Shown: piece after piece, positions 1-11,394 of the stretch
Layout: each line of letters starts with the position of its first letter
Position numbering within the stretch: position 1 is the stretch's first letter
Assembly: GCF_965641715.1 (NCBI RefSeq)
Contig: NZ_OZ282453.1
Reading direction: 5' to 3' (one strand)
Length of the DNA stretch: 64,000 nt
Source: Escherichia coli
GTDB lineage: Bacteria; Pseudomonadota; Gammaproteobacteria; Enterobacterales; Enterobacteriaceae
Made by a program: the position numbers and the translations under genes
The notes under the pieces: generated by a model
Told to the model about the DNA's origin: nothing
Database searches by the model: none
Seen by the model: only the letters and a program-made list of their open reading frames with translations

Positions 1-1
1 C

Positions 2-115
2 TTTTGCCGAGAAGATGGCACGACTGACGGCGCAGCTGAAAGATCAGCTGGAAGAGAGCGCGAAGCTGGAAGCACAGATTAAGGCGAATCTGGGGGGGCT
101 GGGTTATGAGTTCTA
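2..115 (+). CDS. hsdM: Type I R-M methyltransferase subunit HsdM, C-terminal fragment (gene starts upstream of window)
   Basis: Open frame from window edge ending ...KLEAQIKANLGGLGYEF*, a typical HsdM C-terminus; stop overlaps the hsdS start (ATGAGTTCTAA). Confidence 0.7.
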
Positions 116-1461
116 AGTTTCGGAAAGTAAAACTATGTGAAATCCTCTCATTTAAGACAGGTAAACTCGACTCGAATGCAGCAGTAGATAATGGTTGTTA
201 TCCTTTTTTTACTTGCTCGCCAGTTACACTTTCGATTAATACGCATGCTTTTGACACTGAAGCAGTATTATTAGCTGGTAATAACGCAAATGGGGTATTT
301 TCAGTAAAATACCACAATGGTAAGTTTAATGCTTACCAAAGAACATATGTTATTACTCCTCTGGATAATTCAGCGGTCAATGTGAAATGGCTTTATTTTA
401 GAATAAAATATGTTACGTCAGAATTACAATCAATGTCAGTTGGCACTGCAACAAAATTCTTAACAAAAAAGATTTTGGATTCATTTGAGATTGAACTGCC
501 AACTTTTGAAGAGCAAACATATCAAGCTCAGATTTTATGGGCGTTACAGGATAAATTAGCTAATAATGAAGCTATAAACCAAACTCTCGAACAAATGGCG
601 CAAGCCCTGTTCAAAAGCTGGTTTGTCGATTTTGAACCGGTAAAAGCCAAAATGGCAGCGTTGGAAGCGGGCGGTTCGCAGGAAGACGCGACACGTGCCG
701 CCATGACGGCAATTTCCGGGAAAGATGCTGATGCGTTGGTGGTTTTTGCGCGTGAACATCCTGAGCAATATGCCGAGTTAAAAGCCACGGCAGAACTGTT
801 TCCGTCTGCGGTGCAGGAAAGTGAGTTGGGGGCGATTCCTAAAGGATGGGGGGTGGCGTCAATTAGTGAGATGGGGAAGATTACTTGTGGCAAAACTCCG
901 TCAAAAAAAGAACCAAAGTATTACGGTGGTGATGTTCCATTCATAAAGATACCAGATATGCATGGGCAACTCTTTGTGCTTAAAACTAATGAATATTTAA
1001 GCGAAGTCGGTTCAAAGTCGCAACTAAAAAAACTTGTGCCCGCTAACTCTATCTGTGTTAGTTGTATAGCTACTATTGGTGTTGTTTCTATCACCAATGA
1101 ACCATCTCATACCAATCAGCAAATAAATTCGGTTACACCTTATAAGAGTTCATTACTTTATTATCTTTATTTTTGTATATTGGGATTGAAAGATCATCTT
1201 CACGTTTTAGGTAGCGCAGGTAGTGCAACCTTAAATGTCAATACGTCTACTTTCTCAGGAATTAAAATCGCTCAGCCTGATGCTAAAGTATTGGAGTTAT
1301 TTCATGCCAAATGTACACAATTATTTAATGAGATTAAATCGCTCTGTGTACAAACTGAATCACTTGCACAACTACGAGACACCCTCCTCCCCAAACTCCT
1401 CTCCGGAGAAATTACGTTACCGGATGCCGAGGAAATAGCCAAGGAAGCTGACTATGTTTAA
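106..1461 (+). CDS. hsdS: Type I R-M specificity subunit HsdS
   Basis: 451 aa; two AT-rich variable target-recognition regions flank a conserved central block (LEQMAQALFKSWFVDFEP) and C-terminal block (LRDTLLPKLLSGEI); start coupled to the hsdM stop. Confidence 0.9.
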   Translation: MSSKFRKVKLCEILSFKTGKLDSNAAVDNGCYPFFTCSPVTLSINTHAFDTEAVLLAGNNANGVFSVKYHNGKFNAYQRTYVITPLDNSAVNVKWLYFRIKYVTSELQSMSVGTATKFLTKKILDSFEIELPTFEEQTYQAQILWALQDKLANNEAINQTLEQMAQALFKSWFVDFEPVKAKMAALEAGGSQEDATRAAMTAISGKDADALVVFAREHPEQYAELKATAELFPSAVQESELGAIPKGWGVASISEMGKITCGKTPSKKEPKYYGGDVPFIKIPDMHGQLFVLKTNEYLSEVGSKSQLKKLVPANSICVSCIATIGVVSITNEPSHTNQQINSVTPYKSSLLYYLYFCILGLKDHLHVLGSAGSATLNVNTSTFSGIKIAQPDAKVLELFHAKCTQLFNEIKSLCVQTESLAQLRDTLLPKLLSGEITLPDAEEIAKEADYV

Positions 1462-2647
1462 AGTCGATCAGCCCAGTAATAGCCTGCAACCGCTTCAGGA
1501 AACCACCTTCACTAACGCGGGTTTCACCGAGCGCTACCACTTACAGGAGTGGCTGGCAAAGCATCCGCAAGCATTGACTCGCAACAGCGATGACGAACTA
1601 CTTATCATCCAGAAAGAGTTTGCCGGGTTTGACGACACCAAAGAGCGGTTAGATCTGCTGGCGATCGACAAAGACGGCAATCTGGTGATCATCGAGAACA
1701 AGCTCGATGATTCCGGGCGTGATGTCGTATGGCAGGCGCTGAAGTACGCGGGCTACTGCGCGAATCTACGCAAAGAACATATTGTTGAGATCTTCCAGCG
1801 TTACCTCGATCAGAACGATCCAGAAGAAACACGCCCAGCCTCTGATGTGCTCGCAGAATTCCTCGAACATGAAAGCCTGGATGAAGTGCAAATTAACCAA
1901 AGCCGTTCCCAGCGTGTGATGATGGTTGCGGCAAATTTCCGCAAGGAAGTTACCAATACTGCGCTCTGGCTGATGCAGTTCAACATCCGTGTCCAATGCT
2001 TTAAGGTCACGCCTTACCGTTATGGAAATGATGTATTCATCGACATCCGCCAGGTTATTCCCACACCGGAAGCCGAATCCTACATGATCGGTATGGCGCA
2101 GAAGGAAGCAGAAGAACAATCAACCAGCGGTGAACTGAAACAGAGCCAACGCCTGCGCAAGGCGTTCTGGACGCAGATGCTGGAGAAATTTCATGCCAGC
2201 GACTGTACGCTGTATAACAACATCAGCCCGTCTATGGATCACTGGTTATGTGCAGGCTCTGGCATAAGTGGTATGCCTTATAGCCTAATATTCAGCAAGA
2301 AGGAAATCCGCGTAGAATTATGGATTTCGCGAGCATCGGCAGACATCAACACCATGGCGTTGAACTGGCTTGAACAACACCGCACATCTGTCGAAGAGGT
2401 ATTCGGCAACCCACTGGAGTGGCTATCGCTACCTGGTAAAAAAGCCTGCCGTATTCAATACCGCCAAAAAATAGATGGCTTCCAGCAGGAAAATTGGCCG
2501 CAAATGATCGACTGGCTGGTGGAACATATGACCCGTTTTGAGAATGCGCTTTCGCCGTATCTGCCACAGCTTAACCAGTTGATCAAGCAGACCTTTAACG
2601 GGCATGATGAAGCTGAAAATACAACAGAAGAAGCCGAACACGTATAA
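1454..2647 (+). CDS. Hypothetical protein embedded between hsdS and hsdR; N-terminal PD-(D/E)XK-like nuclease motif
   Basis: 397 aa; ATG overlaps the hsdS stop by 8 nt with an AAGGAAG RBS; motif ERLDLLAIDKDGNLVIIENK resembles the D...ExK core of Hjc/NucS/RecB-type nucleases; no P-loop. Confidence 0.6.
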   Translation: MFKVDQPSNSLQPLQETTFTNAGFTERYHLQEWLAKHPQALTRNSDDELLIIQKEFAGFDDTKERLDLLAIDKDGNLVIIENKLDDSGRDVVWQALKYAGYCANLRKEHIVEIFQRYLDQNDPEETRPASDVLAEFLEHESLDEVQINQSRSQRVMMVAANFRKEVTNTALWLMQFNIRVQCFKVTPYRYGNDVFIDIRQVIPTPEAESYMIGMAQKEAEEQSTSGELKQSQRLRKAFWTQMLEKFHASDCTLYNNISPSMDHWLCAGSGISGMPYSLIFSKKEIRVELWISRASADINTMALNWLEQHRTSVEEVFGNPLEWLSLPGKKACRIQYRQKIDGFQQENWPQMIDWLVEHMTRFENALSPYLPQLNQLIKQTFNGHDEAENTTEEAEHV

Positions 2648-2662
2648 CACAGGACGTTACCG

Positions 2663-5600
2663 ATGCTTACCGAAGACGACTTAGAACAGCTTTGCCAGGG
2701 CTGGTTTGCCGAACAAGGTTGGGAAATCCATCATGGGCCAGATATTGCCCCCGATGGCTGTAACCCGCAACGCGCCAGCTATCATGATGTATTCCTGACG
2801 CCCGTGTTGAACGCCTGCCTGCAAAAAATCAACCCGCACCTGCCCACTGACGTCTTCGAACAGGTCATCTCCCGTATTACTCGCGCTGAAAGCCCGGATC
2901 TGATTGCCAGTAACAAAGCCTTTCATCACTGGTTGCTGGAAGGGGTTCCGGTACAGTACCGTCGCGACGAAGAACTTATCCACGACCACGCCCTGCTGGT
3001 GGATTTTAGCCAGCCGCAAAACAACCGTTTTATGGTGGTCAATCAAATGACTATCAGCGGAACGAAACAGCCTCGCCGCCCGGATATCATCTGCTTTATT
3101 AACGGAATACCACTGGCGGTTGTGGAACTAAAAAGCCCTGTCGATGACAAGGTAGATATCTGGGATGCGTACCACCAGTTACAGACCTATAAAGATGAAA
3201 TACGCGACCTGTTTATCAGCAATGAAGCGTTGATTGTCAGTGATGGTTATCTGGCGCGTGTGGGGTCCCTGACCGCCACGGAAGAACGTTTTATGCCGTG
3301 GAAGACCATCAGCAATGAAAATGACAAGCCGTTGCTGGAATGGCAACTGGAAACTATGGTACGGGGTTTCTTCAACCGGGAATTGCTGCTCGACTATATC
3401 CGCTATTTCGTTCTGTTTGAAAATAACGATGAAAGGCTAATTAAGAAAATAGCTGGTTATCACCAGTTCCACGCGGTGCGTGAGGCCGTGCAGGCGACGA
3501 TCGTTGCTTCGACCGGTAAGCAACTGGTACTGCACAGTAATATTCAGCCAGGCAGTAAGAAAGCAGGCGTGGTCTGGCATACGCAGGGTTCCGGTAAAAG
3601 CATCTCCATGTGTTGCTATGTCGGCAAACTGTTGCAACAGCCGGAGATGGGCAACCCGACGATTGTTGTTGTGACCGATCGTAACGATCTGGACGGCCAG
3701 CTTTATGGTACATTCTGCCAGGCACAGGAGCTGCTCAAGCAAATGCCGGTACAGGCAGATGATCGTGAAACATTGCGTGATCTGCTTGCAACTCGCGATG
3801 CTGGCGGCATTATCTTTACCACCGTGCAGAAATTCTCCCCGGAAGAAGGGGAAAACGCCCATCCGATTCTCAATGGACGCAGCAATATCGTTGTTATTTC
3901 CGATGAAGCGCACCGCAGCCAGTACGGCATGAAAGCCAACCTGGATCGTAAAACCGGCGTCTATAAATACGGTTACGCTAAACATATGCGCGACGCGCTA
4001 CCTAACGCCTCGTTTCTGGGATTTACCGGTACACCGGTTTCGGCAGAGGATCGCGATACTCGCGCTGTATTTGGCGATTACGTCTCAATTTATGATATTC
4101 AGGACGCTGTGGACGATGGCGCAACGGTGCCTATTCACTATGAATCCCGGCTGGCAAAACTCGATCTCAATCATGAAGAGCTGGCGGCGCTGTCCGATCA
4201 GGTTGAAGAACTGATTGAGGACGATGAGCTGGATCAGAGAGAAAAAACCAAAGGTGAATGGAGCCGTCTGGAGAAACTAGTTGGTGCTAAACCACGTCTT
4301 CAGCAGATCGCTGCCGATCTGATTTCTCACTTTGAGAAGCGCAATACCGTAATGGACGGCAAGGCGATGATTGTCGCCATGAGCCGTGAAATCTGCGTCC
4401 ATCTTTACGATGAAATTATTGCGTTGCGTCCGGAGTGGCACGATGACGATCCTGAAAAAGGGCAAATCAAAATCGTGATGACCGGTACAGCATCTGATAA
4501 GGCAATGCTGCAACCGCATATCTACAACAAACGGACTAAAAAACGGCTGGAATCCCGCTTCAAGAATGTGAACGACCCGCTGAAGCTGGTGATAGTGCGT
4601 GATATGTGGCTGACCGGCTTTGATGCCCCATGCTGTCACACTATGTATATCGACAAACCGATGCGCGGCCATAACCTGATGCAGGCTATTGCCCGTGTCA
4701 ACCGGGTATTCAAAGACAAGCCCGGCGGGCTGGTGGTGGATTATATTGGTATCGCCAATGAGCTGAAACTGGCGCTGAAAACTTATACCGATGCAAACGG
4801 TAAAGGTGATGCGACCGTCAACGCTGAAGAAGCACTGGCAATCATGCTGGAAAAGCTGGACATCATCCACGGTATGTTTGCCAAAACGGCAACGTCAGCG
4901 GGTTTTGATTACACCGGCTTTGAAGCTCATGCGCAGAAGTTGCTAGTACCAGTTGCAAACTATGTGCTCGGCCTTGAAGACGGTAAGAAGCGTTTTCTCG
5001 ATAACGTACTGGCAATTACTAAAGCCTGGTCGCTTTGCTGTACGCTGGATGCGGCGCAGCCTTATAAACTAGAGATTGCTTTCTTGTCGGCGGTAAAAGC
5101 TGCTATCAGCAAATTCACCAGTGTGGACAAAAAAATAAGCCAGGCTGAGAAGAACTCCGCGCTGAAACAGATTCTGGATAATGCCGTAATTGCTAACGGC
5201 GTGGATGATATTTTCACGCTGGCTGGTCTGGATAAACCGAATATTGGCTTGCTTTCAGATGAATTCTTGCAGGAAGTCCGCGATATGCCATATCGAAATC
5301 TGGCGGTAGAGCTGCTGGAAAAACTGATTAATGACGGTATCCAGTCCCGTACAAAAAACAATGTAGTGCAGGAGAGGAAATATTCAGAACGTCTTCAGGC
5401 TGTATTGATTAAATACAACAACCGGGCTATTGAGACGGCGCAGGTGATTGAAGAGCTGATCCAGATGGCGAAGGATTTTCAGTCTGCAATGGCGCGTGAT
5501 GATGCGCTTGGCCTGAATCCTGACGAGATCGCTTTCTACGATGCACTGGCAGAAAACGAAAGCGCCGTCCGGGAGTTAGGAGATGAGGTACTTAAGAAAC

Positions 5601-5797
5601 TGGCGATAGAAGTGACGCTGAAGCTGCGCCAATCCACTACCGTTGACTGGCAGGTACGGGAAAGCGTTCGTGCAAGGCTGCGTATCCTGGTTCGCCAGAC
5701 TCTGCGTCGGTATAAGTATCCGCCAGATAAAACGCCGGGTGCGGTGGAGTTAATTTTGAAACAAGCGGAAGTTATTTCGAATCATTGGACGATGTGA
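2663..5797 (+). CDS. hsdR: Type I R-M restriction subunit HsdR
   Basis: 1044 aa; N-terminal nuclease motif ([18 protein letters not shown]), helicase motif I ([11 protein letters not shown]), DEAH box ([12 protein letters not shown]), motif III (GFTGTP). Confidence 0.92.
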
Positions 5798-5803
5798 ATT
5801 TTA

Positions 5804-5833
5804 GGCTGGCTGTATCAACTGCCAGCCATATTT
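5804..5833 (+). terminator. Hairpin downstream of hsdR (GGCTGGC-N10-GCCAGCC followed by ATATTT)
   Basis: Perfect 7-bp inverted repeat read directly from sequence, 7 nt after the hsdR stop; T-tract is weak. Confidence 0.45.
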
Positions 5834-5861
5834 AAATTATCATCAGTTAAAAGGCACAATT

Positions 5862-7604
5862 GTGAGTAAATATAGCGAAATACAACGTCAATTAGATGAA
5901 GTAAGCCCAATACCGAAAGGTATTCCTAAAGTATACCTTTTAGGGGACACTGGAGCAGGAAAGACGACTTTTATTCGAAAAATATTAGGAACTGAAAATA
6001 CCAAATTCCCTACCACCAGACAAAGTAGAACAACCGTTGCACCAACTGAGTATGTAATATGTAAATCATCCAATTATGAATTAACGATTCTGTTAAAATC
6101 TTTTGATGAGATTAATGGATATGTCAGAGAAATTCTAAAAGAAGCATTAGAGAAATCATTGAAAGGTGAAGATGTTAAAAGAAGCTTACGTCAAACAAAT
6201 GATCAGCGGTTTCGTTTATACTATCTTCTTGACGTCAGTGATATTGCAAATTTTGCTGAAGAAGTTATCTCTCTTACACCTCTTCTTTCCGAAAAAATTG
6301 ACGAATTAAAAGAAATTTTTACCGATGATATAACGGATCAAGATGAGTATATTAGTTTTGCTATTGATGAATTAAATGATAAAGTTGAATGTATCCAAAA
6401 TAAGATTATGGACTCCATTCAGAGTAATGTAATGTCCATTTGTAATGGAAGTATGTTAAGTAATGAATCACAGATATTTAAATACATTTCAACCGAAAAA
6501 GAAGACTTTATCAAAAAATGTAAAAAAATATTATCAAGTGATAAAGAGTCTATATCACCTGTTGTCGAGTATGCGAGACTGAGTGGAGAACTCAAATCAG
6601 AATGGGTGAATAGTTGTGCAGAAATAGTTATTATTGATGGTGAAGGTATTGGGCATAATACAAAAGAAACGGCACAACTAGACTCCAGGCATTATGATTT
6701 CTTTTATGATGTTAACTCAATCTTGCTTATCGAAGAGTCAAAAAAACCTTTTATTGCTGGGGGCAAAAATGCATTAAAAAGTATTTTTCAGCGTGGATAT
6801 GGTGATAAATTAAAACTAATCTTCACTAAGCTGGATGAAGTTATACCTTATGATTCAGACGAATCAACAGATGAAGATAGAATTGATTATGTAAAAGATG
6901 GTCTCAATAATGTTCTGGATGCATTAAAAAAAGAAGAGGTGAAGTGTAACATTGATATCGAGGATATTTATTTCATCGGAGATCTTGATAAACCTGAGCA
7001 TAACGCAAGACTTGAATTGGCTTTTAATTCCATATATGAAAACACAGTTTCCATGATAAATAATGATGAGGTTTTCATTGAGCCTAAGTATGACTTTGAG
7101 TTATTGGCCTTGCATATAAATTCTACTTCTAATGATTTTAAAACATACTATAGAAAATTATTAGATAGAGAACATTGGAAAACAATAGAAGCATTTAATC
7201 GACGGATGTATTCAAATATAGATGGGTTTAGGATGTTTATGCCTATTACCGATTTTGAGGAAACTGTGAGTAAATATATTGGTGGTTTTTTGACCTCGCC
7301 AATGGATTGGAAATATGAAGCGGTTGATAACTTGAAGCAAAAAAGTATTAATAAAATCAAGAGGGAATTCAACAAGCTTATTCTTAGCTTTATTCGCAAT
7401 AAGTTAATTATGGAACCATATGAAAAATGGAAAGAATCCTATTTCTTAGCTGGCACTGGTTCAACGATTAGTAGAAAACGTGAGATAACTACTATTTTTA
7501 GTGACACAATTATTGATGCCTCCCAAACTGAACGCTTTAAGGTGTTCAAGGATCAAATTAAAGAGATTGTTGTCAAGTCAATAGAGAACTGTAAGTCAAT
7601 ATAA
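5862..7604 (+). CDS. AT-rich P-loop NTPase of unknown function (GTPase-like or ABC-like)
   Basis: 580 aa, GTG start with AAAGG RBS; Walker A/G1 GDTGAGKTT (aa 28-36); far downstream VIIDGEG (DxxG or Walker B-like) and FTKLD ([N/T]KxD-like); LSGE ~15 aa before VIIDGEG could be an ABC signature; GC roughly one third by eye. Confidence 0.6.
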   Translation: MSKYSEIQRQLDEVSPIPKGIPKVYLLGDTGAGKTTFIRKILGTENTKFPTTRQSRTTVAPTEYVICKSSNYELTILLKSFDEINGYVREILKEALEKSLKGEDVKRSLRQTNDQRFRLYYLLDVSDIANFAEEVISLTPLLSEKIDELKEIFTDDITDQDEYISFAIDELNDKVECIQNKIMDSIQSNVMSICNGSMLSNESQIFKYISTEKEDFIKKCKKILSSDKESISPVVEYARLSGELKSEWVNSCAEIVIIDGEGIGHNTKETAQLDSRHYDFFYDVNSILLIEESKKPFIAGGKNALKSIFQRGYGDKLKLIFTKLDEVIPYDSDESTDEDRIDYVKDGLNNVLDALKKEEVKCNIDIEDIYFIGDLDKPEHNARLELAFNSIYENTVSMINNDEVFIEPKYDFELLALHINSTSNDFKTYYRKLLDREHWKTIEAFNRRMYSNIDGFRMFMPITDFEETVSKYIGGFLTSPMDWKYEAVDNLKQKSINKIKREFNKLILSFIRNKLIMEPYEKWKESYFLAGTGSTISRKREITTIFSDTIIDASQTERFKVFKDQIKEIVVKSIENCKSI

Positions 7605-7615
7605 TAAGATAGAAC

Positions 7616-7638
7616 AGTCCCGGATAATATTCGGGACT
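7616..7638 (+). other. Hairpin after NTPase gene (AGTCCCG-N9-CGGGACT)
   Basis: Perfect 7-bp stem 12 nt after the stop codon; no U-tract, so may be an RNA-stability or processing element rather than a terminator. Confidence 0.35.
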
Positions 7639-7706
7639 CATACACTTACAGATGGAGCTATGAATTTAGCAGTAAGAGTATTTGTGATTATTTAAGGAAA
7701 GTAACA

Positions 7707-8672
7707 ATGCCTTTAGATTTAAGTAACACTTTAGTTATTGGCATTAGCGCGACTGCGCTTTTTGACATGAGCGAATCCGACCATATGTTTCGGGAAACCT
7801 TTGCGACTGATCCTGATAGCGCCATTGAAAAATACCGCGCTTATATGCTAGAACACGAAAACCAACCTTTACAGCCCGGAACAGGCTACCCCTTAGTCAA
7901 AGCGTTGCTGGGTCTGAACCAGTACCGTCAACCGGATGATAAATCGCCGTTGGTTGAGGTTGTTGTGATGTCACGTAACAGCCCTGATACAGGTATCCGC
8001 GTTCTCAATACCATTCGCCATGACAAACTCGATATTACACGTTCAGCTTTTACCGCAGGCGAAACCGTTGCCGATTACCTTGATGCCTTTGATGTGGATC
8101 TGTTTTTAACGACCAACGTTGAAGATGCGCAAAAGGTGATTGATTCCCGATTCTGCGCCGCTGCAATCCTGAAAGATCCACCTTCTGACGCATCTGATAT
8201 CCCAGAAGGGCAAGTGCGCATTGCTTTTGATGGCGACGCGGTACTTTTTTCCGATCAAAGCGAACTGGTTTATAAGACCCAAGGAATGGCTGCCTTCCAT
8301 GCTCAGGAAGACGCGCAGCAGGATATCCCTATGGAAGAGGGGCCTTATGCCACTTTGCTAAAAAAAATAGCCAAGCTTCAGGAACGATTGCCGACCCGCG
8401 TTGAGTATTCTCCTGTTCGTATTGCGCTGGTGACAGCCCGAAATAGCCCTTCGGAAATGCGCGTTATTAAAACGCTAAGAAGCTGGGGGGTATATGTCGA
8501 TGAAGCTTTTTTTCTTGGCGGTGTAGAGAAAACAAAAGTTCTGAAGGCGTTTAGGCCACACATTTTCTTTGACGATCAGGATGTGCATTTGATCGCGGCT
8601 GCAAAGGTAGTACCTTCTGGTAAAGTACCTTATGCCAGTAACTCCGAACTTGCAGAACGTGAAGCATCGTGA
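7707..8672 (+). CDS. HAD-superfamily phosphatase, cytosolic 5'-nucleotidase-like
   Basis: 321 aa; RBS AAGGAAAG; C-terminal half carries HAD-like motifs I (IAFDGDAVLF), II (IALVTARN), a conserved Lys and IV (HIFFDDQDVH); N-terminal ~170 aa is a separate domain. Assignment is from motifs, not a search. Confidence 0.55.
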   Translation: MPLDLSNTLVIGISATALFDMSESDHMFRETFATDPDSAIEKYRAYMLEHENQPLQPGTGYPLVKALLGLNQYRQPDDKSPLVEVVVMSRNSPDTGIRVLNTIRHDKLDITRSAFTAGETVADYLDAFDVDLFLTTNVEDAQKVIDSRFCAAAILKDPPSDASDIPEGQVRIAFDGDAVLFSDQSELVYKTQGMAAFHAQEDAQQDIPMEEGPYATLLKKIAKLQERLPTRVEYSPVRIALVTARNSPSEMRVIKTLRSWGVYVDEAFFLGGVEKTKVLKAFRPHIFFDDQDVHLIAAAKVVPSGKVPYASNSELAEREAS

Positions 8673-8680
8673 TTATCGCT

Positions 8681-8715
8681 GACAAACCATTTAGTCATTA
8701 AGACTGAATGGTTTG
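8681..8715. other. Hairpin between convergent genes (ACAAACCATT-N15-AATGGTTTGT)
   Basis: Perfect 10-bp inverted repeat in the 77-bp gap between the nucleotidase-like gene and the HNH gene; possible bidirectional terminator. Confidence 0.4.
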
Positions 8716-8749
8716 TATGCCACTCGCAAAATATCTGCCCTACCTCAAA

Positions 8750-9625
8750 TCAATGCTCTCCTCTGAACACCTCTTTTCTGTGCCATTCCACAAACTGCTC
8801 GCCCGGATAATTTTCTTTAACCGGTGGCAACGCAATCGCCTTTCCCGCAAAATCCCAGAACAGTCGCTGTACCACTCCACCACCATTTACCGCGCCGGAA
8901 ACCACCACACGCATATTTTCATCCAAGCCAATCGAACCGCGATCAAACGCTTTATGATGGATTGCGCACAATGCCAGGCCATTAGGTACTTCACAAGGGC
9001 CATGGTGCTGCTTCCATCTGATATGAGCAGCTTCCAGAGCAATTGGCGCATTGTCGTGGCGCATGTTGAAGCCGCAGATCGCACACTGATAATTGTAAGC
9101 ACGTAGCACCATCTGGCGGAACTTCGGATCGCGTTGACGGAGAGAGGTGCGAATATCAAAACCCATCTCGTCAGCTATCTCTTCCTGAATACTGGCCGGG
9201 AAATGCGCCTCCAGGAGCTGCTGCGCCAGCGTATCAATTAACCTGTGATTTTTTGCCACCAACGCAAAATTATCGGCATCAAATCCACCAGCGACATTAT
9301 ATTCAATGAGTTCACGTCGGGGCGGCTGGCGGCTACCACTGGTTGAGCACAGTTGTGCGTTTTGTAGTTCCCAGAAGCCATCGCCCTTCAGACGCCAGAA
9401 CGGCATGTCCGGGCGCTGGTCACGGCGCTGCGGTCCATAACGTTCCAGAAGATCCAACAGGGGCTCGTAGATTTCAGAACCATAGTTAAACAGGCGACCA
9501 TGACCCTGCCGATAGTGTGAGAGGACGTGCAGCAGCAATAATGGCTTATGTGGCGCACGTTGTTCGCCTTTGCGCCAGATGGTGATATTTGATATCGCTT
9601 GCTTTAGGGCTTTGTCAGAGGTCAT
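8750..9625 (-). CDS. HNH endonuclease with N-terminal putative DNA-recognition domain (candidate Type IV restriction enzyme)
   Basis: C-terminal HNH motif YQCAICGF...AAHIRWKQHHGPCEVPNGLALCAIHHKAFDRG (CxxC, H, N, CxxHH); ~190-aa N-terminal domain unidentified. Start set at ATG (MTSDKAL); the track ORF extends to a TTG at 9670. Confidence 0.6.
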   Translation of the reverse strand: MTSDKALKQAISNITIWRKGEQRAPHKPLLLLHVLSHYRQGHGRLFNYGSEIYEPLLDLLERYGPQRRDQRPDMPFWRLKGDGFWELQNAQLCSTSGSRQPPRRELIEYNVAGGFDADNFALVAKNHRLIDTLAQQLLEAHFPASIQEEIADEMGFDIRTSLRQRDPKFRQMVLRAYNYQCAICGFNMRHDNAPIALEAAHIRWKQHHGPCEVPNGLALCAIHHKAFDRGSIGLDENMRVVVSGAVNGGGVVQRLFWDFAGKAIALPPVKENYPGEQFVEWHRKEVFRGEH

Positions 9626-9769
9626 TGCGTTGAAGAATCCATGAGCACATATTTGCGATGATGCTCGCAACTATATGTACATTCAAGGCATTATTGCAGA
9701 CATCCTTTTTGCCTGACTGCTCTGTACCTGGCAGATGAAATTCTGATAACAACGGTAAAAAATACAGCG

Positions 9770-9840: not shown

Positions 9841-11109
9841 TCACTCGCCATTACCCCGATTGATCTTCGCATAGTCAAACGGCGTAATCGCTCTCTCCCG
9901 ATTGGCATCCAGAAAATCAGCCCACCACTGCAACATCAGCTTGCGCTCATCCAGGTGTTCCGCTTTATGGATATACGCCGCCCTCACCGAGCTGCGTTCC
10001 ATATGGCTCATCTGCCTTTCCACCGCATCCTTCGACCATAACCCTGACTCAATCAATGAGCTACAGGCCATTGTGCGGAAGCCGTGGCCGCAAACTTCAA
10101 CCTTAGTGTCATAACCCATCACCCGTAGCGCACTGTTTACCGTGTTCTCGCTCATGGGCTTACGCGGATCGTGATCGCCAATAAAAATCAGCTCATGTTC
10201 GCCACAGAACTGTTTTATCTGCTTCAGGATCGCCAGCGCCTGCTTTGAAAGCGGCACCAGATGCGGTGTACGCATCTTTGAACCTCGCTGAGAATGTTTC
10301 ACACCGGGAATCGGTTCTCGCTCAGGCGGGATGGTCCACATTGACGTTTCAAAATCGATTTCTGACCAGCGAGCAAAACGTAGCTCACTGGATCGAATAA
10401 AGATAAGCAGAGTGAGTTCTGTCGCCCAGCGGGTTAGCGGCCTGCCTGTATAGCTATCTATTTTCTCAAGTAACTCAGGGATACGCTTTAATTCCAGCGC
10501 CGGGCGATGCTGTCGATTGCCAGAGGCGACTGCTCCAGCCATCTCCTGCGCTGGGTTGTAATCAATCAGCCCACTTTGCACTGCATAACGCATAATGGCC
10601 GTGGTACGCTGTTGGAGACGAGAAGCCACCTCAAGACGTCCAGACAGTTCCACCGCTTTAATGGGTGCCAGTAAGTCACGAGTGCCCAATTCGGCAATAT
10701 TGCGAGAACCAATTGCCGGGAAGATATTGTCCTCCAGGCTCTTTTTTACACGATTAGCATGATCTTCTGACCATTTTTGGTTGGTTACGAGCCACTCTCT
10801 GGCAACCTTCTCGAAAGTAATAATCTCTTTCGCCTGCTCTTCTTTCACAGCACGCTTATGCTCACGAGGATCGATACCAGCAGCTACCAGCTTTCTGGCC
10901 TCTTCCCTTTTCTTCCTGGCATCTGCCAGCGAAACATCCGGGTAAACGCCGAACGCCATCAAATGTTGTTTACCGCCAAAACGGAAACGAAATCGCCAAT
11001 ACTTTGAACCGCCAGGTTTTACAAGTAAGGACATGCCATCGCCGTCAACAAGTGAATACTCTTTCTCCTCAGGTTTCGCAGAGCGAACTTTAGTATCCGT
11101 TAGGGCCAT
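9841..11109 (-). CDS. intB: P4-type tyrosine integrase (IntB-like) adjacent to leuX
   Basis: Begins MALTDTKVRSAKP..., ends ...AITPFDYAKINRGNGE; C-terminal catalytic region with R...HxxR...Y pattern; start trimmed from the track ORF (448 aa) to the conserved MALTD start (422 aa). Confidence 0.85.
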   Translation of the reverse strand: MALTDTKVRSAKPEEKEYSLVDGDGMSLLVKPGGSKYWRFRFRFGGKQHLMAFGVYPDVSLADARKKREEARKLVAAGIDPREHKRAVKEEQAKEIITFEKVAREWLVTNQKWSEDHANRVKKSLEDNIFPAIGSRNIAELGTRDLLAPIKAVELSGRLEVASRLQQRTTAIMRYAVQSGLIDYNPAQEMAGAVASGNRQHRPALELKRIPELLEKIDSYTGRPLTRWATELTLLIFIRSSELRFARWSEIDFETSMWTIPPEREPIPGVKHSQRGSKMRTPHLVPLSKQALAILKQIKQFCGEHELIFIGDHDPRKPMSENTVNSALRVMGYDTKVEVCGHGFRTMACSSLIESGLWSKDAVERQMSHMERSSVRAAYIHKAEHLDERKLMLQWWADFLDANRERAITPFDYAKINRGNGE

Positions 11110-11280
11110 AATGGTCTTCCTTCCATTGGTATCTCGTGAGTATACAAGCAATATCGAATCGGCAAATATACTCATTAGTATACTCACAAGCCTGTTGATG
11201 TGGGTTGGTTCAGGTTGACTTCAGTTGAGGAGAAAAGCTGGAAAAGCCTTGCGTGGCGCGGATTTCAGGCATAAAAAAAG

Positions 11281-11309: not shown

Positions 11310-11394
11310 TGGTGCCGAAGGCCGGACTCGAACCGGCACGTATTTCTACGGTTGATTTTGAATCAACTGCGTCTACCGATTTCGCCACTTCGGC
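11310..11394 (-). tRNA. leuX: tRNA-Leu (anticodon CAA)
   Basis: Reverse complement reads GCCGAAGTGGCGAAATCGGTAGACGCAGTTGATTCAAAATCAACCGTAGAAATACGTGCCGGTTCGAGTCCGGCCTTCGGCACCA: cloverleaf with CAA anticodon and CCA end. Confidence 0.95.

Follow-up and report, generated by a model that had tools for sequence, protein, structure and literature searches.

Why does a Type I restriction-modification (R-M) operon of Escherichia coli hold an additional open reading frame (ORF) between hsdS and hsdR, and what would its protein do? The operon lies within a stretch of 64,000 nucleotides (nt) from RefSeq assembly GCF_965641715.1, contig NZ_OZ282453.1 (the window), and the ORF, at positions 1454 to 2647 on the plus strand, encodes a protein of 397 amino acids (aa). 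A preliminary description, made from the letters of the window, had listed this protein as "unknown," with a nuclease-like N terminus and an unassigned C-terminal part, and had suggested that it is probably co-expressed with the Type I system and perhaps serves as a backup or in abortive infection. Our analysis points instead, with a probability of roughly 0.7, to a self-sufficient, Type IV-like modification-dependent restriction nuclease of the PDC-S11/MdgA family. The operon is laid out as follows.

3 to 116, plus strand: 3' end of hsdM (frame-3 translation ending in KLEAQIKANLGGLGYEF and a stop codon), with the remainder of the gene to the left of the window; the M-S order is also found in relatives
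106 to 1461, plus strand: hsdS, Type I specificity subunit, 451 aa (partial match to NF007278)
1441 to 1461, plus strand: coupling junction, with a Shine-Dalgarno-like AAGGAAG (1441 to 1447), the ATG of the ORF (1454 to 1456), and the TAA of hsdS (1459 to 1461)
1454 to 2647, plus strand: PDC-S11/MdgA-family gene, 397 aa, probable modification-dependent restriction endonuclease (PADLOC PDLC04913)
2663 to 5797, plus strand: hsdR, Type I restriction subunit, 1,044 aa (TIGR00348; E = 5.5e-186)

The ATG of the ORF sits 8 nt inside hsdS (..GACTATGTTTAAAG..), where the end of hsdS reads GAC TAT GTT TAA and the start of the ORF reads ATG TTT AAA, and 15 nt separate the ORF stop (2647) from the hsdR ATG (2663). 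hsdM and hsdS overlap by 11 nt, with the last 38 hsdM codons falling within the window. Because these overlaps and short gaps join them, M, S, the ORF, and R make up a single compact block on one strand. The placement between hsdS and hsdR and the 8-nt overlap with hsdS (1454 to 2647 versus 106 to 1461) are therefore as first described, and the embedding of the ORF in the Type I operon agrees with the earlier suggestion that the two are co-expressed, which we consider very probable. The ORF also has a good ribosome-binding site. A consensus scan of positions 1 to 9000 found promoter- and terminator-like sites to be no more common than in shuffled sequence and is uninformative on an internal promoter; the single weak plus-strand promoter-like match within the block (1665 to 1692) lies inside the ORF. 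Within hsdS, two AT-rich target-recognition regions (G+C content of 0.34 to 0.36) flank a conserved middle region (0.52), and the gene matching hsdS is named "restriction endonuclease subunit S" in E. coli records.

Profile searches placed the ORF protein in a catalogued family, whose discovery and defence role are already published. In PADLOC-DB it matched PDC-S11 (PDLC04913; E = 1.1e-177), with residues 1 to 379 aligned to positions 1 to 373 of the 375 in the model, and seven more PDC-S11 models matched it at E values of 2e-64 to 3e-28. Pfam assigned residues 234 to 370 to DUF4268 (E = 3e-36) and gave weak PDDEXK_4 and NucS_C matches at the N terminus; NCBIfam yielded no family, its NucS match falling below threshold. 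The name "DUF4268 domain-containing protein" is given to a 99%-identical E. coli protein and to hundreds of orthologues from enterobacteria. The protein can thus no longer be called unknown, given its RefSeq and PADLOC names and a characterized relative, nor can its last ~250 aa be called unassigned. The earlier idea of an accessory defence gene, by contrast, is borne out by membership of a defence-associated family. Among representatives of 50%-identity clusters, 5,102 matched at E ≤ 1e-3 and 458 at E ≤ 1e-30, and the best-scoring of these were mostly ~370 aa long and matched over nearly their full length. The family norm is 370 to 397 aa, and in the window protein, too, a single chain within the range of ~370 to 400 aa unites a NucS-type PD-(D/E)XK domain at the N terminus with DUF4268 at the C terminus.

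The PDC set in PADLOC was compiled by "guilt-by-embedding," in which genes become candidates through their location inside Type I R-M, BREX, and DISARM loci (Payne et al. 2024, bioRxiv 10.1101/2024.01.29.577857), and an ORF nested in a Type I operon is the very situation from which that set was defined. PDC-S11 is a computational candidate label that carries no mechanism, and neither PDC-S11, PDC-S08, nor DUF4268 was found in the searched part of the supplementary text of Payne et al. 2024. The domains and residues of the ORF protein are positioned as follows.

1454 to 2065, plus strand: N-terminal NucS-like PD-(D/E)XK nuclease domain, ~residues 1 to 204
1529 to 1531 and 1616 to 1618, plus strand: upstream acidic residues E26 and E55, respectively
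1643 to 1747, plus strand: catalytic core, with D67 (1652 to 1654), E81 (1694 to 1696), K83 (1700 to 1702), Q94 (1733 to 1735), and Y98 (1745 to 1747)
2066 to 2197, plus strand: long connecting helix, residues 205 to 248, from the secondary structure of AlphaFold2 models
2153 to 2563, plus strand: DUF4268 domain, residues 234 to 370, presumed sensor or partner-binding module

An AlphaFold2 model of the ORF protein, computed from 91 homologues, was confident (predicted local distance difference test [pLDDT] of 92.1), and a profile-to-PDB sequence search aligned D67...E81-x-K83...Q94...Y98 to the catalytic segment of NucS. The motif ERLDLLAIDKDGNLVIIENK spans residues 64 to 83 (nt 1643 to 1702). 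Across an alignment of 91 diverse homologues (27 to 89% identity to the query), E26, D67, K83, Q94, and Y98 were invariant, and E55 and E81 were at least 90% conserved. The ratio of nonsynonymous to synonymous substitution rates (dN/dS) was 0.044 against a 98%-identical E. coli allele and 0.08 to 0.10 against Hafnia and Cedecea orthologues. Considering the conserved active site together with the low dN/dS, this is an intact nuclease gene under purifying selection and not a remnant; the thousands of homologues, dN/dS values of 0.04 to 0.10, and catalytic residues that are invariant or nearly so also argue that the ORF did not arise by chance. These data support a PD-(D/E)XK nuclease with a NucS-like core. 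The preliminary description had read a Hjc/NucS-like core from the motif, and the profile alignment upholds the NucS-like part of that reading; the full-length, conserved state of the protein speaks against a degenerate remnant. Its remark that the P-loop of PrrC is missing also holds, with no Walker A motif or P-loop detected in the ORF protein.

The likeness to NucS (EndoMS; PDB 2vld) is restricted to this core. Identity to the window protein is 18% over aligned residues, the PDB profile match is confined to the catalytic motif, and the NucS equivalog NF003270 scored 15.1 bits against a cutoff of 216, matching residues 65 to 107. The window protein is without the N-terminal mismatch-binding domain of NucS, and its C-terminal domain differs. 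NucS is found in a repair context, whereas the window protein is found in a defence context.

Indications of what such a protein does come from MdgA (modification defense gene A), a single-protein system with NucS-like and DUF4268 domains that was recovered from a human gut metagenome insert in a functional metagenomic study (Rodriguez-Rodriguez et al., Cell Host Microbe 2025, PMC12366544). MdgA was necessary and sufficient for T4 defence in E. coli and also restricted Mu, but T4-GT7, which has unmodified cytosine, was not restricted (PMC12366544). Purified MdgA degraded T4 DNA, which contains glucosyl-hydroxymethylcytosine (glucosyl-hmC), far better than GT7 DNA, and both cleavage and defence were lost in an E77A mutant (PMC12366544). 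The source insert of MdgA (T4-29, or F01A_T4_pc4_2) is among the PADLOC PDC-S11 hits in the authors' table, and the primer that introduced E77A, GTTATTGTTGCAAACAAGCTAGATGAT, encodes VIV(E>A)NKLDD (PMC12366544). This motif, VIVE77NKLDD in the wild type, corresponds to IIE81NKLDD in the window protein, where the essential glutamate is thus present. The wild-type version of the primer 27-mer differed by 2 mismatches from family genes at codons 74 to 82 (for example, those at loci L004 and L021 of the survey described below), and relatives with the MdgA-type E77 motif matched the same PADLOC sub-model, PDLC04913, as the window protein; a scan of metagenome contigs for the exact 27-mer gave 0 matches. 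Sequence comparison therefore offers a strong but indirect case that MdgA belongs to the family of the window protein. The two share the PDC-S11 label, the two-domain description, the catalytic motif, and a similar size. They differ in that MdgA did not come from E. coli and was tested out of context, whereas the window copy lies within a Type I operon and is credited with activity by analogy only.

Several points weigh against extending the behavior of MdgA to the window protein. The link between them consists of a domain description, the PADLOC label of the source insert, and a 9-residue motif. Relatives with the E77-type motif are ~37 to 42% identical to the window protein, so its substrate preference may differ. 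Furthermore, the activity of MdgA on unmodified GT7 DNA was reduced, not absent (PMC12366544).

Substrate preference directs attention to the C-terminal half. When residues 205 to 397 were modelled alone (pLDDT of 89.4), they formed the long helix and then a beta-beta-beta-alpha-alpha-beta-beta-alpha unit. Folds of known modified-base readers did not appear in this model; the SRA, PUA/EVE/YTH/ASCH, winged-helix, and iEndoIII types of Type IV reader were all absent. The nearest folds to DUF4268 were those of protein-binding type III secretion system chaperones and YbjN proteins rather than those of DNA-base readers. Five residues in this half are invariant (K217, W239, N299, W323, and W348). 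Some GmrSD Type IV enzymes also have DUF4268 appended at the C terminus, where it is predicted to bind DNA (PMC4619093, PMC5714182). The most likely role of DUF4268 is to select the substrate, and it may also mediate oligomerization; in the models, the connecting helix is a possible dimerization or spacer element. A bolder proposal is that DUF4268 in the nested copies docks on the Type I enzyme or monitors its inhibition by anti-restriction proteins, which would make the protein a PrrC-like guard with a DNase effector and not an autonomous Type IV enzyme. We consider this unlikely. In a milder version, DUF4268 might represent a structurally new class of hypermodified-DNA reader.

Whether the protein would need the Type I enzyme can be approached through the distribution of its relatives. 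We surveyed the 80 best loci, with one genome per species, and sought Type I genes within 8 kb by single-sequence phmmer with HsdM, HsdS, and HsdR queries. These loci span Proteobacteria, Bacteroidota, Verrucomicrobiota, Firmicutes, Spirochaetes, and one archaeon. A total of 25 copies were embedded between M/S and R, 4 were directly after R, and 6 were in other arrangements up to 8 kb from a Type I subunit (five on other strands or sides and one with hsdR downstream only), so that at least 35 of the 80 lie near Type I genes. By our own estimate, which draws on typical genome size and Type I copy number and was not computed, ~1% of random genes would have a Type I locus within 8 kb, and compared with this estimate the enrichment is very large. 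The same −8 overlap with hsdS recurred in six loci, from Hafnia, an Enterobacteriaceae metagenome-assembled genome (MAG), Serratia, a Gammaproteobacteria MAG, a Halieaceae MAG, and Microbulbifer.

No Type I gene was found within 8 kb of the other 45 copies, which are solitary and, as expected for Type IV enzymes, have no dedicated cognate methyltransferase. Their neighbors included both defence genes (BrxL at three loci, a Type IIG R-M enzyme, GajA, PDC-S02, PDC-M03A, and a DpdF-like helicase) and housekeeping genes (a GlcD-like oxidase, RecA, and a histidine kinase). Upstream neighbors of 400 to 500 aa were considered as missed HsdS subunits and rejected; they include a GlcD-like oxidase, a flavin mononucleotide monooxygenase, a histidine kinase, and RecA. 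Enrichment in R-M and defence contexts is thus strong, in line with the accessory role first proposed. No constant partner gene was found in the S-R slot of relatives, and the other cargo of this slot consisted of unrelated stand-alone defence genes (PDC-S23, SoFic, DarG, and DRT4/6). The slot behaves as a landing pad. Since no constant partner accompanies the gene and 45 of the 80 loci have no Type I system nearby, the ORF enzyme is probably autonomous.

The survey also turned up further contents of the slot. The slot often holds a second, unrelated defence gene next to PDC-S11, and such genes or extra ORFs were present at loci L013 to L018, L026, L027, L047, and L059. Slot ORFs without a PADLOC match had lengths of 629 to 656 aa (L015 and L059), 247 to 270 aa (L041 and L076), and 424 aa (L027), and they are candidates for further embedded defence genes. 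In E. coli O15:H12 2273-PO3 (locus L002, 6935 to 8116), a 61%-identical family member stands alone in a region rich in insertion sequences and adjoins a truncated hsdR pseudogene. This looks like what is left of a Type I block whose nested nuclease gene outlasted its host system.

Within the species, a copy recognizable at the DNA level was present in 156 of 5,426 complete E. coli genomes (~3%), and many of these copies overlap an annotated S subunit. Plasmid pSLy3 carries a 67%-identical copy in an M-S-DUF4268-R block, and 372 records of a plasmid collection matched, 227 of them from Klebsiella. One 61.7%-identical allele was found on many plasmids of Klebsiella, E. coli, Raoultella, and Shigella, ranging from 33 to 324 kb, which suggests recent horizontal spread on resistance-type plasmids. 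Phage genomes gave 3 weak matches among 50,697 records, and given this near absence we rejected a mainly phage-borne or anti-defence gene.

The mode of action that we propose leans on the analogy with MdgA. The NucS-like domain (E26, E55, D67, E81-x-K83, Q94, and Y98) would cut DNA, the long helix would join it to DUF4268 and possibly dimerize, and DUF4268 would pick the substrate. Incoming phage DNA with hypermodified bases, such as the glucosyl-hmC of T-even phages or the Mom-modified adenine of Mu, would be attacked, and host DNA would be spared. The ORF would share the transcript of the Type I operon, with its translation coupled to that of hsdS. DNA without the host methylation pattern is the target of Type I restriction, which phages with glucosyl-hmC (such as the T-evens) generally resist. 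Nesting may then provide co-transfer, co-expression, and complementary coverage, with the Type I enzyme directed at unmodified DNA and the ORF enzyme directed at hypermodified DNA.

Other explanations are less likely because homologues of the ORF protein function and occur alone. The abortive-infection role raised in the preliminary description would have the nuclease held inactive, freed when Ocr, ArdA, or a Stp-like protein disables the Type I enzyme, and then degrading host and phage DNA alike. The slot is classically that of PrrC (Payne et al. 2024), the ORF is tightly coupled to hsdS, and the fold of DUF4268 is nearest to protein-binding, chaperone-like folds, all of which would suit such a guard. 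However, no Type I system lies near 45 of the 80 surveyed homologues, MdgA alone defends heterologous E. coli, and purified MdgA cuts T4 DNA with no partner or trigger (PMC12366544). The window protein has no PrrC-like ATPase or sensor module, and no PrrC model was among its PADLOC matches. PrrC occupies the same slot but is an ABC-ATPase with a Walker A motif and an anticodon RNase, whereas the window protein has a DNase fold and no P-loop, and its family is not confined to Type I loci. According to the MdgA work, phage DNA is more likely cleaved directly and in a modification-dependent way than by a backup or abortive-infection nuclease (PMC12366544), and we find a guard quite unlikely. A DNase that, like Shedu or NucS, senses structure or ends (free ends, replication intermediates, or mismatches in phage DNA), for which the difference between T4 and GT7 would be secondary, could account for a DUF4268 that is not a known base-reader fold and for the residual activity of MdgA on GT7 DNA (PMC12366544). 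This too is an unlikely account, as the MdgA phenotype follows modification, with T4 and Mu restricted and GT7 not (PMC12366544), DUF4268 is found again as an additional domain of GmrSD Type IV enzymes (PMC4619093), the NucS mismatch-binding domain is absent, and the score for the NucS equivalog is 15 bits versus a cutoff of 216.

A genuine accessory subunit for the Type I enzyme, one that binds HsdR or HsdS and supplies or modulates cleavage or controls restriction alleviation, might explain why 25 of 80 species keep the S-R position, and subunits produced at a fixed ratio typically have overlapping frames; the chaperone-like C-terminal fold would also be in keeping with it. Canonical Type I enzymes nevertheless need no such subunit, and most E. 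coli Type I loci are without a copy (156 of 5,426 genomes carry one). The family is also found after hsdR, beside BREX, Gabija, and Type IIG systems, and among housekeeping genes, and unrelated stand-alone defence genes fill the same slot in relatives. We therefore regard an accessory subunit as very unlikely. The chance that the ORF is a decaying or silent passenger with no current function appears slimmer still: it does lie on a mobile island with variable cargo, where hsdM is a pseudogene in E. coli AH65, but the protein is full length, E26, E55, D67, E81, K83, Q94, and Y98 are all present, dN/dS is 0.04 against the 98%-identical allele and 0.08 to 0.10 against other genera, and the ribosome-binding site is good.

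A modification-dependent nuclease of the kind that we favor would resemble the GmrSD/BrxU-type and MspJI/AspBHI-type Type IV enzymes, which likewise unite sensor and nuclease in a single polypeptide and have no cognate methyltransferase. The targets of GmrSD overlap those of MdgA (glucosyl-hmC), and some GmrSD proteins carry DUF4268 (PMC4619093), as does the window protein. The window protein differs in having neither the DUF262/DUF1524 domains of GmrSD, the SRA-like module of MspJI, nor a nucleoside triphosphatase (NTPase), and DUF4268, its putative reader, is unrelated to known reader folds. END nucleases (iEndoIII fusions) were considered as a related family and rejected; they belong to a different family and offer a conceptual parallel only.

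The Type I block occupies the right-hand end of an island integrated at the tRNA-Leu(CAA) gene leuX, and the following features lie downstream of hsdR, up to and including the island boundary.

5862 to 7604, plus strand: 580-aa P-loop protein (G+C content of 0.32), with GDTGAGKTT in its N-terminal part, directly after hsdR
7707 to 8672, plus strand: PDC-S08, 5'-nucleotidase-like, 321 aa (PADLOC; E = 5e-134)
8750 to 9670, minus strand: phosphorothioate-DNA-dependent HNH restriction endonuclease (NF045808; E = 5e-133)
9841 to 11187, minus strand: tyrosine integrase, right-hand island boundary
11310 to 11394, minus strand: tRNA-Leu(CAA) leuX, right-hand island boundary

The window is chromosomal: to the right of leuX are E. 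coli core genes (ahr, yjgR, and the idn operon) that are 99% identical to E. coli. The island layout is matched in E. coli AH65, where hsdM is a pseudogene and a 165-aa hypothetical protein replaces the 580-aa ORF and the next gene. The 580-aa protein matched no Pfam, NCBIfam, or PADLOC family below an E value of 1e-3 (the best were weak MMR_HSR1, mad3, and mad8 matches), and its sequence suggests a possible uncharacterized NTPase defence gene. A related E. coli record has "5'-nucleotidase" annotated under the stretch that matches PDC-S08, a candidate, from its sequence, for another embedded or adjacent defence gene. The HNH enzyme is a second modification-dependent nuclease of the island, which therefore holds three restriction modalities.

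With the family already catalogued and one member characterized, what is new here is narrow: how DUF4268 would choose a substrate despite its unlikeness to known modified-base readers and whether the nested copies interact with the Type I enzyme. For E. coli, the locus illustrates layered defence within one operon of a leuX island, where a Type I system and a nested, probable nuclease of hypermodified DNA are combined, with the phosphorothioate-dependent HNH enzyme downstream. Since the gene is present in ~3% of complete E. coli genomes and relatives of it on several hundred plasmids, mostly from Klebsiella, it may affect the host range of T-even-like therapeutic phages.

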